64,000 nt of DNA from Escherichia phage vB_Eco_F26, in the sequence record OP870145.1. One strand, given 5' to 3'. Made by a program: the position numbers and the translations under genes. Position 1 is the stretch's first letter. Each line of letters begins with the position of its first letter. This document shows, piece by piece, positions 3 through 50,652 of this stretch. The notes beneath the pieces were generated by a model. That model was given only the letters and a program-made list of their open reading frames with translations. It was not told the DNA's origin and made no database searches.

Positions 3-1955
<1,953 letters not shown>

Positions 1956-41955: not shown

Positions 41956-43543
<1,588 letters not shown>

Positions 43544-43547
43544 AATA

Positions 43548-43568
43548 AAATGGGCCTTGCGGCCCACT
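43548..43568 (-). terminator. rho-independent terminator after nrdB
   Basis: TGGGCC-TTGC-GGCCCA hairpin followed by TTTTATTAT on - strand. Confidence 0.55.
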
Positions 43569-43570
43569 CC

Positions 43571-44072
43571 TTAAAAGTATTTTTTAAAACTCATCATAAC
43601 TTTATCATCAACATCATTATCAATCTGTGCAACAAGGTAAGATGACAGTTCTACTTCTTGTGGCGCGGATTGAACATTATCAGAATTAAGATATTCACGA
43701 ATCCAAGGATATGGGTGTTTAACCGGAGCATCGGTAATTGGGCATGGAAGACCACACTGTTTCATACGAGATACAGTTAAGTAATCAATAAAGCTCCACA
43801 TGCTATTTGTATTTAATCCAGGAACATCGCCATCTTTAAATAAATGAACTGCCCAATCTTTTTCTTGGCGGTTAACTTCCATGAAAATATCAACTGCTTC
43901 TTGTTCACACTCTTGAGCAATTTTAACCCATTCATCACCATCAGTACCGGATTGAAGCTGACGAATAATATATTGAGTGCCTTTAAGGTGAAGCTGCTCA
44001 TCACGTGCAATGAACTTCATAATCTTGGCATTACCTTCCATGATTTCCATGTTCTTATGGAAGTTAAAGGTA
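43571..44072 (-). CDS. nrdB: ribonucleotide reductase small subunit NrdB, exon 2 (boundary approximate)
   Basis: In-frame continuation ...FNFHKNMEIMEGNAKI matching R2 proteins; joins exon 1 across a ~598-nt intron. Confidence 0.8.
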
Positions 44073-44670
44073 CCGTTATGTTCGATTGAGCTCGCTAATT
44101 CTCAACCCGTTCTCTTATGAACTGCTACATATTACTATGCAGACCAGACTATATCACAATCCCAGAGGGATTCTCCCCATTTCGAGTCGCTTGACCCTAC
44201 GTCCGAAGACTAGTCGTTGAACCTTGCTTTGCAATTGTCGCCGTGCCATCGTTTATATGTTGATGGTGATAAATCTTTCTTATCACAATATGGACAATTC
44301 AATTGAATTCTATTTGGATTTAATTTACATCTGTCATTATGTTTTAGATAAAATCCAGGACCTTTACCAATGTGACCACAGAAATCACATGTGATTTCTT
44401 TTTGTGCAGGATGGGTCCCGTTCTTAACCATTTCTAATGTTTTTGCTGATGTTCTTTTCTTATGGTCTTCCATCAGAATCTTTAGGTAGGTCCGTTAGCA
44501 TCTATCCAAATTTTTCTATAGTTCAATTGTGCATCCTCTTAAAAGTATAATCATATTATACTAATTAAAGGTGCAAGCAAAACCTTGGCTGCTAGTTTTC
44601 CTATAAAGGACTTTCTAGCAATTAAAGGAGTTTTCGATAAACGTTACCGTTTAAAGGCGCATTTTACGCA
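44073..44670 (-). mobile_element. group I self-splicing intron in nrdB (boundaries approximate)
   Basis: In-frame stop right after FYVSFA; conserved group I elements (GACUAUA / UAGUC); contains I-TevIII remnant ORF; ~598 nt. Confidence 0.7.
44210..44473 (-). CDS. I-TevIII homing endonuclease remnant (zinc-finger domain only)
   Basis: 87 aa with two Cx2C..H..C zinc fingers and no HNH catalytic region; intron-encoded. Confidence 0.7.
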   Translation of the reverse strand: MEDHKKRTSAKTLEMVKNGTHPAQKEITCDFCGHIGKGPGFYLKHNDRCKLNPNRIQLNCPYCDKKDLSPSTYKRWHGDNCKARFND

Positions 44671-45341
44671 AAAGATACATAAAAACGAATAGCTTCTAAG
44701 GCATTAATAACGTGCAAACAGAGGTAAAGAGATTTCATTAAAGCACGTTTAGCTTCGGCTTCTTGTTTAATAGCTCGGTTTAAACGAAAGTCGGCATCAG
44801 GAGATTCTTTAGCTAGTTCTACAAATTCTTTAGCATTTTCCCATTCACGGGTTTTAGTCAGAACATCATCATAATAACGACCGATAGATTCAGCACGTTT
44901 CATAATAGCTTCATCTAATACAATCTCATCAAATACCTTTGACGGATCAGTATAAAGATTTCGCATGATATGAGTATATGACCGACTGTGAATAGTTTCA
45001 CTAAAAGTCCATGTAGCAACCCATGTATCAAGGCTTGGGTCTGAAAGCAATGGCATAAGTACAGCAGACGGCGCACGACCTTGAATACTATCAAGTAATG
45101 ATTGATACTTCAGATTATTAGTAAAAATATTTTGTTGATACTGAGGAAGCTTATTAAACTGTGCAGCATCCATCATTAAGTTAACTTCTTCGGGACGCCA
45201 GAAAAACGAGAGCGAACGTTCAATAAGTTCTTCAAATACTCGATGTCGTTGAATATCATAACGCGCAATTCCAAGACCAGACCCAAAAAACATAGGTTCT
45301 TTTAAAACATCGACCTGTTTAGTATTAAAAACTGTACTCAT
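44671..45341 (-). CDS. nrdB: ribonucleotide reductase small subunit NrdB, exon 1
   Basis: N-terminal R2 sequence ending ...ALEAIRFYVSF(A) followed by in-frame TAA at intron start. Confidence 0.8.
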
Positions 45342-46933
45342 TATTTTGTCCTGTAAACTAAATTTCCACAGTCCCAGATTCTTCTAAGACCATTTGCATA
45401 ACAATTTTCTACTTCAGTTATTGTATCATCATAATTTTTAAGCTTGTTTTTAAGCTTATGTTTCATATAGCTTGAGCGGTGAAATACCTCTCCTTTATCG
45501 ACGTACCAATAACATGGCTCAGAGATATGACTAAATTCCATGACAGAGTCATAAACATTTGATAATGTACTGCACCATCTTCGATTGCCATAAGATAGAC
45601 AATTAATTCCTTTTAATAATTTTGAGGCTCCTCCTACAACACAAATCCCTAATTTTGAACACATCCTTAAAAGTTCATCACCTGAGCTATATCTAGATTT
45701 ACCGATAGAAATAATTTGAACTAACTCATTATTGTAATAAAGTCCTTTATACGTATGAGCTCCTGAGCAAAATCCTTGAAGATGATTCTTATTAATAAAT
45801 TCTTTTGCCTCATCCTTATTAACAAAACGCGCTTTGCATTTTCGGGCTGGTATTCTTTCTGATAATCCTAATTTATGCTTTATAATGGATTTCCAGATCT
45901 CTCTTTTTGTATCATCAATCCATTCATTTTCGAAGATGTGAAGTAATTGAATTCCTTGTGCTTCACACATCTCTGTCTTCATCAAATGATAAGTTTCTTT
46001 AATTTTATCTGTTTCCTTTGACCCGCTAGAATGCCAATAAATTCCATCGTATTCTATAGCCAATTTTTTCTCAGGAATGTAAATATCTAATTCATACGGA
46101 GGAATAATTTTTCTAGTTTCTACGCAATCAAATCCTAGATCTAAAATGAATTGCTCTATAGAACTTTGAGTATAATGAACGTCAATTAGTCCTTTGGATG
46201 AAAGAGCTCTATAAGCCGTCATCCGAGAACAATTTGCTAATTGTTGTAGTTCTTCTATAGAAATTTTGTAATTGATTTTATCTAGTATATCATGATTAAT
46301 ATGACCGTTATTTTTAATAGATTTTCCTATAGATGAATATAACGATGCCTTATATTCTTCAGTCCAATTTAATTTAGTCTTCTTAGATTTTTCGCGAGAT
46401 TTTCGAGAATTCAGAATATCAACTGATTTACCGTTTTCTATAACTTTTCTCGCTTCTTTCACACTTTCTAATTGTGAATTATGCGTTACCCCATATCGTT
46501 TAATTAAAGTTTTTCTATTTTTATTTCTTGAAATTTTTTGATGAGTTGTTCCATATTTTTCTAAAGAATTTTTGCGTTGAAGTTCAGACAAATATTTTTT
46601 ATATTTTTCTTTTCCGCCAAAATTTGTATCACGGCTTTGAATTCTCTTATCCGCGAAAAATATCCCTGAGCAGGATTTACTACATGTTGCTGGAAATACA
46701 CGTTTCTTTGCTGTTTTCAGAGAAATGAAATTTCCACAAACTGCACATTTTAGATCGTTAATGTCAATGCCTTCCATAATTTGGAACACATTGAGCTTAA
46801 AATCTATTCCATCAGTTAGAAGAGCTTTATCTTCTTCTGTTAGTCTAGATTTAAGTTTTTCTTCTCCAAATGGAAGAAACTTTCCGTTTTTGTATATATT
46901 ATCAAACATAGCGTTATTCTTAGTTAACCACAT
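45341..46933 (-). CDS. large free-standing endonuclease-like protein (Zn ribbon + PD-(D/E)xK / Vsr-like core), possible Hef-type homing endonuclease
   Basis: 530 aa; N-terminal CAVCGN...CSKSC; repeated KYG(T/V)TH modules; HTH-like LANCSRMTAYRAL; core ELDIYIPEKKLAIEYDGIYWHSS; Cys-rich C-terminus; sits at the nrdA/nrdB intergenic locus. Confidence 0.55.
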   Translation of the reverse strand: MWLTKNNAMFDNIYKNGKFLPFGEEKLKSRLTEEDKALLTDGIDFKLNVFQIMEGIDINDLKCAVCGNFISLKTAKKRVFPATCSKSCSGIFFADKRIQSRDTNFGGKEKYKKYLSELQRKNSLEKYGTTHQKISRNKNRKTLIKRYGVTHNSQLESVKEARKVIENGKSVDILNSRKSREKSKKTKLNWTEEYKASLYSSIGKSIKNNGHINHDILDKINYKISIEELQQLANCSRMTAYRALSSKGLIDVHYTQSSIEQFILDLGFDCVETRKIIPPYELDIYIPEKKLAIEYDGIYWHSSGSKETDKIKETYHLMKTEMCEAQGIQLLHIFENEWIDDTKREIWKSIIKHKLGLSERIPARKCKARFVNKDEAKEFINKNHLQGFCSGAHTYKGLYYNNELVQIISIGKSRYSSGDELLRMCSKLGICVVGGASKLLKGINCLSYGNRRWCSTLSNVYDSVMEFSHISEPCYWYVDKGEVFHRSSYMKHKLKNKLKNYDDTITEVENCYANGLRRIWDCGNLVYRTK

Positions 46934-46949
46934 CCTTGTGGTAATTATA

Positions 46950-47939
46950 TCATAATTTACAGGATGAACAATCTTCAGCTTTTGGAGTTTCTATTTCATA
47001 ATCATCAGTGCCAGAACCATCGCGGGTATTATGATAATAGAAATTTTTTCCGCCAAAATACCAAAAATACAAAAGGTCATCAATCATTATTGACATTGGA
47101 ACCTTTCCTTTTGGAAAAATCTGCGGGTCATAGTATGTATTCGCTGAAGCTGATTGACATACCCATTTCAGCATAATAGCTACCTGCGTAAGATAAGGTT
47201 TATTACCTTTCTTAGCTAATTTCCATGTATAATCATAGAGGTCTATGTTATGCTCAATATTGGGCACGACTTGATTAAAGGAGCCCTCTTTTGATTCTTT
47301 AACAGAGACTGGTCCACGTGGAGGCTCGATACCGTTTGTACTGTTAGAAACTTGGGAAGATGACTCACATGGCATAAGTGCTGATAATGTGCTATTACGG
47401 ATGCCAAAGAGCTTAAGGTCTTCCCGCAGCGCCGACCAGTCACAAACGTATTTTGGAGCTGCGATTTGGTCAATCTTTTTATTGTACCAGTCGATAGGTA
47501 ATTCGCCTCGAGACCAACGAGTGTCTGAATAATATTCGCAAGGTCCTTTTTCTTTGGCGAGCTTAATGGATGCTTTAATGAGTCCATACTGTAATCTCTC
47601 AAATAGTTCATGTGTTAAATCGTTAGCATCTTCATAAGAAGCAAAGTTGCTTGCCAGCCAAGCTGCATAGTTAGTAACACCTACACCGAGGTTACGACGC
47701 TTTTTAGCTTTTTCTGCTTCAGGAACTGGATATCCTTGATAATCCAAAAGATTATCAAGAGCGCGAACTTGAACTTCTGCCAATTCATTAATTTTATCTT
47801 GGTCTTGCCAATCGAAGTTATCCAGTACGAAGGCAGAGAGAGTACAAAGCCCCACTTCTCCCTTGTTTTCAATAACTTTTATTGTAGTATACTCATCATC
47901 TTCGTAAAATTCATCTACAAATTCATAATCAATATTCAT
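46950..47939 (-). CDS. nrdA: ribonucleotide reductase large subunit NrdA, C-terminal piece
   Basis: 329 aa; aligns to class Ia R1 from ...GEVGLCTLSAF to C-terminal CxxC tail; own ATG overlapping the HNH stop. Confidence 0.8.
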   Translation of the reverse strand: MNIDYEFVDEFYEDDEYTTIKVIENKGEVGLCTLSAFVLDNFDWQDQDKINELAEVQVRALDNLLDYQGYPVPEAEKAKKRRNLGVGVTNYAAWLASNFASYEDANDLTHELFERLQYGLIKASIKLAKEKGPCEYYSDTRWSRGELPIDWYNKKIDQIAAPKYVCDWSALREDLKLFGIRNSTLSALMPCESSSQVSNSTNGIEPPRGPVSVKESKEGSFNQVVPNIEHNIDLYDYTWKLAKKGNKPYLTQVAIMLKWVCQSASANTYYDPQIFPKGKVPMSIMIDDLLYFWYFGGKNFYYHNTRDGSGTDDYEIETPKAEDCSSCKL

Positions 47940-48639
47940 TTAATTCTTCTACCTTTTTTCTAGTAATTCCTAAAGCTTTAGATGCTCGATGTATTGATTG
48001 ATATTCTATACCGTTTATTTTTACAGCAATTAAGTTATGGGGTTTTAATCCCTTTGGATGAGGTTTACTGACGAAAACTAAATTATCAAGCTCTGAAATC
48101 TTATCCAATTTCTTACACTTAAATCCTTTGTGATGCGCCCGTTTACCTTTACAAACGGCTGACATTGCAGATGAATTTAAATTATGCTCTTTACAAAATT
48201 CGTTAAGACCTCGATGAATTTCCTCATGACCATCCGGAAATGTAAACACCCAAGATGTTTGAAGTCGAGATTTAACTTCTGGAGACATAGGAATACCTTT
48301 GTTCCAAGCTGGTTTGCCTTTATTATTTTCAGATACAGAAATAGCCAATTTTCTTCTAAGCCACCCATGGCGTTTATTGGTGTTCTTTCGTTCAATATTA
48401 TCTTCAGAATAAACACACATCATATTAGCGGCAAATATCAATTTATGATTATCTGGATATATCTTTACTAATAATTGATGAGCTATGTAATGCTCTTCTG
48501 GCGTCAAATCTACCAGGTTTTCCTTTGTATCAGAACCACCAATACACAGAGGTATAATATGGTGTGATTCGGTATAGCAATCTAATTTTCTGTTCTTAGC
48601 TTTAGAAATAAGGTTATTGTAAATTTTAGAATAATCCAT
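47929..48639 (-). CDS. free-standing HNH homing endonuclease inserted within nrdA
   Basis: 236 aa; motif YTESHHIIPLCIGG..N..EHYIAH; own SD (GAGGAAAA); paralog of the two + strand HNH genes. Confidence 0.8.
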   Translation of the reverse strand: MDYSKIYNNLISKAKNRKLDCYTESHHIIPLCIGGSDTKENLVDLTPEEHYIAHQLLVKIYPDNHKLIFAANMMCVYSEDNIERKNTNKRHGWLRRKLAISVSENNKGKPAWNKGIPMSPEVKSRLQTSWVFTFPDGHEEIHRGLNEFCKEHNLNSSAMSAVCKGKRAHHKGFKCKKLDKISELDNLVFVSKPHPKGLKPHNLIAVKINGIEYQSIHRASKALGITRKKVEELNEY

Positions 48640-48684
48640 AACTTTTCCTCTTGTTATGGATTATTTATTAACGGTCTGTGTACT

Positions 48685-50118
48685 TTATTTGCTTTGAATT
48701 ATACCGCCAGGATTAGCTTCATAAAACTTAGCTACATCCGACTTCTTAATTTTGATTAAACGGGTTTGTTGGCTATTCACATCATTTGTTGGAATAGCAA
48801 TTTCACAGCACAAGTTACTCTGACGAATAGGTGCCTTTTCACGAATAAACGGAGTATAGTTATTCGTATTATCAATGAACTGCACATAAATCCTTGCTGT
48901 TCCTGATCGTTCAGTCATGAGCAATTCAAACAGTTCACGGGCTTTAATACGCTTTTTACGAATATTAGGGTCTTTTTCTGCGGCTTCGTATAATTCACGG
49001 AAACGGTCTTGGTCTTTAAAATAAGAATAATAAAGTTCGCCACCCATTTCATGCGGACTGAACAAAGTAATGTAATCGTTCTTTCCGAATCGTTCCATCA
49101 TCAAATCATTCAGCTGAACACCATAATCCATGTGACGAATGCGGTTTTCTTCTACGCCTTTGTTATTTTTCAAAACGAGAAGATTTTCAACTTCCAAATG
49201 CCAAATAGGATAATAAGCAGTAGCAGCGCCGCCACGAATTCCACCCTGTGAACATGATTTAACAGCAGTCTGAAAATGTTTCCAAAAAGGAATAACACCA
49301 GTATGGCGTACTTCACCCATGCCAATCTTAGAACCTTCGGCACGAATCATACCAACGTTAATACCAATTCCAGCGCGTTTAGAGATATATTCAACAATTG
49401 AAGCGGAAGCCTTATTGATAGACTTTAATGAATCACCTGCCTCAATAACAACACATGAACTAAACTGTCGAGTCGGAGTACGACAACCAGCCATAATAGG
49501 AGTTGGCAATGAAATCTGTCGAGTAGATACTGCTTCATAAAAACGAATAACATGTTTTAGTCTATCAACAGGTTCATCTTGATGCAATGCCATTCCAATA
49601 GTCATAAATGCAAACTGTGGGGTTTCATAAATTTGACCGGTGGTTTTATCTTTAACTAGATATTTTTCTTTTAATTGCATCGCCCCGGAATAAGTAAATT
49701 CCATATCCCGTTCGTGCTTAATTTTTGATTCTAAAAATGTAATTTCTTCTGCTGAATATTTTGACAATAATTCAGGGTCATATTTACCTTCATTTACACA
49801 GTAAGAAATATGGTCAATAAATGAACGCGGTTCATACTGCCCATAAACATGCTTACGAAGAGCGAACATTAAACAGCGTGCAGCTACATATTGATAATCA
49901 GGTTCTTCAACCGAAATAGAATTCGCAGCAGCCTTAATGACAATAGTCTGAATATCATCAGTTGTCATTCCATCACGGAGATAAGATTTAATATTTTCAT
50001 ATAATTCATAAGGATCTACTGATGTTCCCTCAGCTGCCCAAGATAAAACTTTAATAATTTTTTGTGGGTCAAAGCTCTGAGAAACACCACTACTTTTGAT
50101 AACATTAATTAATTGCAT
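48685..50118 (-). CDS. nrdA: ribonucleotide reductase large subunit NrdA, N-terminal piece
   Basis: 477 aa; class Ia R1 through active-site SNLCCEIAIPTNDVNS, then 28 non-homologous residues and a stop. Confidence 0.85.
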   Translation of the reverse strand: MQLINVIKSSGVSQSFDPQKIIKVLSWAAEGTSVDPYELYENIKSYLRDGMTTDDIQTIVIKAAANSISVEEPDYQYVAARCLMFALRKHVYGQYEPRSFIDHISYCVNEGKYDPELLSKYSAEEITFLESKIKHERDMEFTYSGAMQLKEKYLVKDKTTGQIYETPQFAFMTIGMALHQDEPVDRLKHVIRFYEAVSTRQISLPTPIMAGCRTPTRQFSSCVVIEAGDSLKSINKASASIVEYISKRAGIGINVGMIRAEGSKIGMGEVRHTGVIPFWKHFQTAVKSCSQGGIRGGAATAYYPIWHLEVENLLVLKNNKGVEENRIRHMDYGVQLNDLMMERFGKNDYITLFSPHEMGGELYYSYFKDQDRFRELYEAAEKDPNIRKKRIKARELFELLMTERSGTARIYVQFIDNTNNYTPFIREKAPIRQSNLCCEIAIPTNDVNSQQTRLIKIKKSDVAKFYEANPGGIIQSK

Positions 50119-50435
50119 AAGTCCTCAACTTGAAAATCGTCTTTAAACAATCGGTTAACTATATGAGCTATTATATCACCATGACACGGCTTTGGTTTAC
50201 ATGTGCATCCTAGCCTCATTCCACGTAAAGGCTCTAAATGTGCTTTAGTTATTTCTCCAGATTTAATTCGACGTATAAAATCTTTTTTGAATAATTCAAT
50301 GGCAGCCTCCCGGCTGCCAGCATCTTTACCGACGTAATTTCCCCAAAATGTACCGCGGTGAATATTAACATCAAAGTCGGATTTATATTTATTCACTACC
50401 CGGCATAGACGGCCCACGCTGGAATAATTCTTCAT
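50109..50435 (-). CDS. hypothetical protein (nrdA.1-like, Cys/His motif)
   Basis: 108 aa; [11 protein letters not shown] motif; between td and nrdA. Confidence 0.5.
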
Positions 50436-50652
50436 ATTGTTTTTCCGTTAAAACAGTAATATCGTAGTAACAGTCAGAAGAAGTTTTAACTGTGGAAATT
50501 TTATTATCAAAATACTCACGAGTCATTTTATGAGTATAGTATTTTTTACCATAAATGGTAATAGGCTGTTCTGGTCCTGGAACTTCTAACTCACTTGGGT
50601 TAGGAAGTGTAAAAAGAACAACGCCAGAAGTATCTTTAAATCGTAAAATCAT
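50389..50652 (-). CDS. hypothetical protein (nrdA.2-like)
   Basis: 87 aa ORF between td exon 2 and nrdA.1. Confidence 0.45.

Follow-up and report, generated by a model that had tools for sequence, protein, structure and literature searches.

The free-standing homing endonuclease Hef of coliphage U5 was reportedly described by Sandegren, Nord and Sjoberg in 2005 (NAR 33:6203). A later paper summarizes Hef as an endonuclease that cleaves close to its own locus and is dissimilar to known homing endonucleases (PMC3322345). Hef is also reported to home, with nrdB as the gene that is cut. Taylor et al. (2011) defined the Vsr-like EDxHD family, with I-Bth0305I at its center, and included in it the "bacteriophage Hef type homing endonucleases" (PMC3239194). 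Here we analyzed the gene located between nrdA and nrdB in a 64,000 nt stretch of DNA from Escherichia phage vB_Eco_F26 (OP870145.1). This whole stretch is called the window in the following, and all positions refer to it. The open reading frame (ORF) at this locus is very probably the gene for Hef, which T4-like phages carry as a free-standing homing endonuclease and which acts by classical homing. New here is that the last third of Hef, 174 residues on which the homing-endonuclease literature says nothing, appears to be a conserved Mom-like domain.

I-Bth0305I (PDB 3R3P), the EDxHD/Vsr-like prototype, is intron-encoded, has 266 aa, and carries a C-terminal nuclease behind NUMOD/HTH modules. 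Hef differs from it in being free-standing and twice as long, in having a zinc ribbon, DUF7487-type repeats and an extra Mom-like domain after the nuclease, and in the replacement of E170 by Q256. Unlike Hef, Vsr (PDB 1CW0/1VSR) has a single domain. It nicks DNA at T:G mismatches and contains a zinc site of its own as well as intercalating Trp residues. The free-standing HNH endonuclease MobE of T4 occupies the same slot between nrdA and nrdB, and nrdB is its reported cut gene. With about 230 aa, MobE nevertheless belongs to an unrelated HNH family and has no sequence or fold relation to Hef. The top structural match of Hef is the Mom protein of phage Mu (PDB 8BV8). This enzyme belongs to the GNAT superfamily and transfers a glycyl/carbamoylmethyl group to adenine N6 in a tRNA-dependent reaction. 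Its chemistry, elucidated in 2026, is a glycyl-tRNA-dependent adenine modification in double-stranded DNA. In the comparative-genomics literature, proteins described as "Mom fused to REase" (restriction endonuclease) are predicted to be restriction-modification-like systems (Iyer et al.).

The hef ORF covers positions 45341..46933 of the minus strand and encodes 530 aa followed by a stop codon, when counted from the first ATG. It is flanked by the C-terminal nrdA ORF (46950..47939) and by exon 1 of nrdB (44664..45341), and its stop codon TAA (45343-45341) shares one base with the ATG of nrdB, resulting in TAATG. The original prediction had assigned the ORF to the nrdA/nrdB gap in which T4 carries mobE. 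This position was confirmed, and RB55 and other T4-type phages have mobE there. A comparison with hef of U5 revealed 99.4% identity at the nucleotide level and 99% identity at the protein level, and the flanks are the same. A megablast search of the ORF against GenBank phage records retrieved 16 records, all 99.1–99.6% identical, including AY262133 (Bacteriophage U5, protein ABI48935), which is annotated as "hef: Hef, homing endonuclease". By this degree of identity the gene, which had been considered possibly Hef-like, is hef itself. The ORF is no chance reading frame, since it has more than 2,700 homologues and its residues 7-529 match PHROG 3339 ("homing endonuclease", E = 6e-152).

The prediction that the protein is neither of the GIY-YIG nor of the HNH type also held, as no Pfam match to either was obtained even at E ≤ 1. 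A GIY-YIG identity was rejected for this reason. The label "HNH endonuclease" of PHROG 559 is a family name that is unsupported by the folds found, and this identity was rejected as well. An NCBIfam scan of the whole protein and of each half gave nothing useful. Hef was thus already known, having been characterized in 2005 and assigned to the Vsr-like enzymes in 2011, and the interpretation given in the original prediction was right and already in print. The ORF itself is the rediscovery of a gene characterized twenty and classified fifteen years ago and has little discovery value. Our analysis contributes the identity with U5 Hef, both folds, the conserved residues, the presence/absence polymorphism, and the signs of recent horizontal spread.

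The C-terminal 174 residues of Hef (aa 357-530; 45344..45865, minus strand) form, as judged from structural modeling and profile comparison, a GNAT-fold domain of the Mom family. The full-length AlphaFold2 (AF2) model, calculated from 42 homologues, had a mean predicted local distance difference test (pLDDT) score of 90.3, and a model of aa 1-356 had a pLDDT of 91.2. When the full-length model was compared to the PDB by Foldseek, ranks 1 and 2 were taken by 8bv8 (phage Mu Mom S124A) with E = 1.4e-6 and a probability of 1.00. The other matches listed with a probability of at least 0.9 were GNAT acetyltransferases, all but one. An hhalign comparison of the Hef C-domain profile with a profile of 29 bona fide Mom proteins gave a probability of 88% and E = 2.9e-6 over 129 columns. 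The Pfam scan was performed over 42 aligned relatives, and Pfam Mom (PF25680) matched 5 of them at E ≤ 0.01, two (P0060 and P0066) above the gathering score; Hef of the window had no match to this family at E ≤ 1. Single-sequence comparisons were weak: hhalign against one Mom protein gave E = 0.067, and the hidden Markov model (HMM) of the C-domain detected only a GNAT protein (E = 0.3) among the PDB sequences. The relation to Mom is convincing only because of the Mom family profile and the structural search.

We counted residue conservation over 120 homologues. The nuclease and the Mom-like domain are fused in all of them, and the Mom-like domain is conserved as strongly as the nuclease. The proposed active site of Mom consists of H58, Y59, R111, S124, D149, R151, and Y159, with R111, S124, and R151 being essential (PMC13219725). 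Four to five of these seven residues are conserved in the Hef family. H58 corresponds to H384 (118/120), R111 to R423 (119/120), R151 to R452 (120/120), and Y159 to Y461 (118/120). The position of D149 is occupied by N450, with Asn in 93 and Asp in 27 of the homologues, and Y59 is replaced by L385. The counterpart of S124 is either V433 or the invariant S437, since two alignments disagree; the invariant residues G434-G435-A436-S437 lie at the start of the helix that corresponds to the one of Mom. Overall, the likeness to Mu Mom includes conserved equivalents of H58, E108, R111, R151, and Y159 and a Mom-specific insertion that aligns in part. The differences are the low identity (14–18%), the changes of D149 to Asn and of Y59 to Leu, the ambiguous S124 counterpart, and the fusion to a nuclease in place of a free-standing protein.

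A Cys-rich C-terminal domain of about 170 aa had been predicted for this region. Nine Cys residues are indeed present within the 174 aa, but Cys richness is not a feature of the family and the fold is that of a GNAT protein. Even the best kept of these residues, C522 (109/120), C425 (107/120), and C366 (99/120), are not invariant, and four of the nine are poorly conserved or absent in relatives. A C-terminal cysteine-cluster or metal domain was therefore rejected.

The distribution of hef is that of a mobile element. The nrdA and nrdB flanks matched 667 records of T4-like phages, only 16 of which have hef, while the rest are empty or carry mobE. In most of the 667 records the nrdA-nrdB spacer has about 44–51 bp with a hairpin (e.g., RB14), and others have mobE (RB55, HY03). 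Alignment of the junctions of the window with those of RB14 (empty) and RB55 (mobE) located the hef cassette to ~45342..46942 (minus strand). This cassette of about 1.6 kb takes the place of the entire spacer. Its GC content is 0.275–0.34, compared to 0.38–0.42 in the adjacent nrdA. The spacer of RB14 (743..793, 51 bp) contains the inverted repeat GACTC-ATGGAC-GAGTC, which is deleted in hef+ genomes, and hef translationally abuts nrdB where the empty-site phages have the hairpin. Between hef+ phages, hef is 99.1–99.6% identical, whereas the flanks (400 nt of nrdB and 381 nt of nrdA) show 93–97% identity. The higher conservation of hef compared to its flanks indicates recent lateral spread. Both the presence or absence at a fixed site and an element that is more conserved than its surroundings correspond to the behavior of a free-standing homing gene.

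We compared the start of nrdB between six hef+ and six hef-less sequences. A hef-linked polymorphism is located in nrdB codons 7-10 (45312..45323, minus strand), which read ACTAAACAGGTC in the window and ACAAATCCAGTT in five of the six hef-less phages, and leads to the amino-acid changes N8K and P9Q. At nt 19-27 of nrdB, all six hef+ sequences have ACTAAACAG and five of the six hef-less sequences have ACAAATCCA; HY03 is unlike either. The combination of T21, A24, A26, and G27 was present in 6/6 hef+ and 0/6 hef-less sequences. Polymorphisms farther into nrdB were not linked to hef. Based on these alignments, the cluster at nt 21-27 is a candidate for a target difference that confers immunity, or for a tightly co-converted flank.

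The module of nuclease and Mom-like domain is present in 407 phage records, where it occupies 959 places and reaches up to 11 copies in one genome. Five copies were found in a PA5oct-like Pseudomonas jumbo phage and four in LIMEstone1, and the latter were named Hef-like free-standing endonucleases (PMC3296691). The Campylobacter phages F341, F371, F368, CP39, and CPX (~130 kb) harbor 9–11 copies each, which is unusually high for one family.

The nuclease domain itself comprises aa 254-356 (45866..46174, minus strand) and is of the Vsr-like (EDxHD-type) PD-(D/E)xK class, with D283, E294, D296, and H301 as predicted catalytic residues. The core string ELDIYIPEKKLAIEYDGIYWHSS, which had been quoted as resembling Vsr/EDxHD-type nucleases, is present at aa 281-303. 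This assignment agrees with our results: the family HMM matched 3r3p (I-Bth0305I) with E = 1.5e-4, the modeled fold is the Vsr-like PD-(D/E)xK fold of the EDxHD family, and D283 and H301 are conserved. The Pfam families MTES_1575 (21.7 bits, gathering score 38.2) and DUF559 (15.5 bits, gathering score 20.6) both matched below the gathering score. D283, H301, H316, K319, and H332 are invariant, E294 is present in 119/120 homologues, and position 296 is Asp or Asn. D283 aligns to the metal-binding Asp (D196 in I-Bth0305I, D51 in Vsr) and H301 to the general-base His (H213 and H69, respectively). A candidate counterpart of D222 of I-Bth0305I and D97 of Vsr is D309, eight residues past H301 (nine in I-Bth0305I); it is found in 71/120 homologues, with many gaps and a two-residue offset in the alignment. 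Fold and residue conservation suggest that this central domain cuts DNA via D283, E294, D296, and H301 with Mg2+.

The N-terminal half has several segments that vary across the family. The head (aa 1-60; 46754..46933, minus strand) is a small beta-hairpin with short helices, modeled with a pLDDT of ~90 past residue 10; it had no family match in the Pfam or NCBIfam scans. It is followed by a four-cysteine zinc ribbon of the FCS/YacG type (aa 61-92; 46658..46753, minus strand), to which the predicted N-terminal cluster CAVCGN...CSKSC corresponds. Its residues C63, C66, C84, and C88 are kept in 111–116 of the homologues. Profile matches for the ribbon were weak (FCS zinc finger 2l8e, E = 0.03; YacG, E = 0.16–0.18), and Pfam YacG and zf-FCS each matched one relative. 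The ribbon presumably contacts nucleic acid. A helical repeat region (aa 94-212; 46298..46654, minus strand), which is DUF7487-type in relatives, was modeled as long helices. At least two KYG(T/V)TH modules had been expected, and exactly two K/RYG(T/V)TH motifs are found, at aa 126-131 and 146-151. Pfam DUF7487 (PF24308) matched 30 of the 42 relatives (best E = 2.8e-56), while Hef of the window had no match at E ≤ 1. These repeats are presumed to bind DNA and to provide specificity. The predicted HTH-like segment is present as well (aa 214-250; 46184..46294, minus strand), with AF2 helices at 214-219, 226-233, and 237-246 that make up a helical region at about aa 214-246. Support for it was weak, with E = 0.13 for Pfam HTH_11 on aa 222-244 and low-probability Foldseek matches to winged-helix and TrpR repressor proteins. 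Since the N-terminal half is variable across the family, unlike the two C-terminal domains, it is most likely the part that binds DNA and sets the target.

In the mechanism that we propose, hef+ and hef-less phages infect the same cell, and Hef made from the hef+ genome would cut the hef-less one in its nrdA-nrdB region. During repair of the break by recombination with the hef+ genome, hef would be copied together with nearby markers into the broken genome. The N-terminal half would bind DNA and set the target, and the central Vsr-like domain would cut. The Mom-like domain, as the obligatory partner of the nuclease, may have a non-enzymatic, accessory role in gripping DNA or flipping a base. 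Alternatively or in addition, it may bring two nickase-type Vsr domains together as a dimer, which would allow cutting of both strands. The sequence differences at the extreme 5' end of nrdB most likely protect the hef+ genome from being cut. We consider an accessory role of the Mom-like domain to be most likely, at low certainty. It was ranked above an enzymatic role because D149 of Mom is usually Asn in the family and because a sequence difference already marks the hef+ targets. The near invariance of the other active-site equivalents placed the enzymatic role second.

Several points weigh against this interpretation. The accessory role is a tentative proposal, and an enzymatic role would explain the very high conservation of the catalytic-site equivalents no less well. 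The cleavage and homing activity of Hef is cited here second-hand, from later papers. In the nuclease domain, the first Glu of the EDxHD signature (E170 in I-Bth0305I, E25 in Vsr) is Q256 in Hef of the window, although 107/120 relatives have Glu; E260 is close to Q256 but out of register with the signature Glu. The T4 late-promoter sequence TATAAATA was not found near hef, sigma-70-like sites near the gene were no more frequent than expected from shuffled sequences, and no terminator was found.

The alternative that fared best is that the Mom-like domain is an active enzyme, which, in the manner of Mu Mom, would transfer an acyl or aminoacyl group onto the N6 of adenine at or near the Hef target. 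Hef would then be a single-polypeptide, site-specific "restriction-modification" module that serves homing and protects the carrier genome. Such protection would be needed by the carrier because the gene of a free-standing endonuclease leaves its own target undestroyed on insertion. The constant fusion to the nuclease with equal conservation of both domains (120/120) favors this view, as does the retention of residues important for Mom activity (PMC13219725) as R423, R452, H384, and Y461. The invariant residues G434, G435, A436, and S437 occupy the place at which GNAT proteins hold the phosphate of the cofactor and at which the essential Ser of Mom is found. The domain is also retained by each of the up to 11 copies per genome, which would be sensible if each copy guards its own site. 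Nevertheless, D149, whose substitution by Ala strongly lowers Mom activity, is N450 here and Asn in 93/120 homologues, Y59 is changed to L385, and the S124 equivalent is ambiguous between two alignments. Moreover, the fixed sequence difference beside the insertion in hef+ genomes could alone provide immunity. In the literature searched, we found no report of adenine modification by Hef and no paper linking Hef with Mom. We also know of no Mom-type adenine adduct in T-even DNA. An enzymatic self-protection is therefore rather unlikely in our view.

A second alternative is that the protein acts as a restriction-modification-like conflict system, in which the Mom domain modifies phage adenines broadly and the nuclease attacks unmodified DNA of the host or of superinfecting phages. 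Homing would not be its main purpose. Proteins from jumbo phages that were described as "Mom fused to REase-fold" have already been interpreted in this way (Iyer et al.), and a PA5oct-like Pseudomonas jumbo phage has five copies of the two-domain module. The conserved catalytic-site equivalents are also in line with it. Hef is, however, reported to home and to cut beside its own locus. In addition, hef is a presence/absence allele that few phages carry; it lies between two conserved genes, alternates with mobE, and is far more conserved than its flanks. Multi-copy families with variable N-termini typify homing endonucleases with different targets and not genome-wide protection. T-even DNA is, moreover, already shielded by glucosyl-hydroxymethylcytosine. 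We regard a conflict system as improbable. It is even harder to believe that Hef is a decaying or domesticated remnant, i.e., a nuclease-inactive DNA-binding protein such as a regulator of nrd expression that is retained for host benefit: the replacement of the first EDxHD Glu by Gln, the lack of a detected own promoter and the translational abutment to nrdB would fit, but the remaining catalytic residues are all intact, 16 phages have the ORF in full length with 99% identity, and U5 Hef has Q256 too and yet is reported to be an active endonuclease.

The start codon of hef differs between records. In GenBank, the hef coding sequence (CDS) of U5 (544 aa) opens 14 codons upstream of the ATG of the window ORF, and the window has AAG instead of that ATG. 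At 46973..46975 (minus strand), U5, SG1, SP21535, and ESh36 have ATG, and the window and FL12 have AAG. The state of this codon tracks the nrdA 3' allele (GCAGATGAT vs. GCTGAAGAT). Because the U5 start codon is AAG in the window and in FL12, the 14-codon upstream extension does not belong to the conserved protein. Translation probably begins at the ATG at 46933 or at the one that follows, which is used in the SG1 record. The annotated lengths of Hef therefore vary (522, 530, and 544 aa), without a real difference in the protein core. No second copy of Hef was found within the window.

The neighboring nrd genes are interrupted as well. The nrdA gene is present in two pieces over 46950..50118 (minus strand), a 477-aa ORF (48685..50118) that extends beyond the conserved active-site motif NLCCEIAIPT, and a 329-aa ORF (46950..47939). 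An ORF for an HNH endonuclease of 236 aa (47929..48639) lies between the two pieces. The hef gene of the window thus adjoins an nrdA split by an HNH endonuclease gene, as is also the case in some other hef+ phages, e.g., FL12. The split arrangement was found in 34 phage records, where it is annotated as two nrdA CDS and a homing endonuclease, and it resembles the nrdA of Aeromonas phage Aeh1, which is split by mobE (PMC3045599). Both nrdA pieces of the window carry a short additional tail or head, which might function in reassembly. The nrdB gene is interrupted at 44050..44664 (minus strand), between ORFs of 225 aa and 159 aa. At this position T4 has its group I intron. The gap contains a Cys-rich ORF of 87 aa (44210..44473), probably a remnant of I-TevIII. 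An Rfam scan of 43000-50500 at the gathering threshold did not reveal a group I intron, which would be odd if the nrdB intron were intact.

The fusion proteins of a REase domain and Mom on the one hand and Hef on the other are one protein family, and one of its members has reported homing activity. We argue that the lifestyle of this family is homing rather than genome-wide protection. The Mom mechanism of 2026 makes a working DNA-modifying domain in a homing endonuclease directly testable. There is a small chance that Hef-type enzymes are natural fusions of a site-specific nuclease and an active Mom-like adenine modifier that marks or protects the target of the carrier. If this were true, the fusion itself would solve the problem of self-immunity that free-standing homing endonucleases face, and the "REase-Mom" proteins of jumbo phages that are counted as momylation systems would be homing elements. 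With its 959 copies in 407 sequenced phages, this is a large family, so that the answer would affect the annotation of many phage genes.

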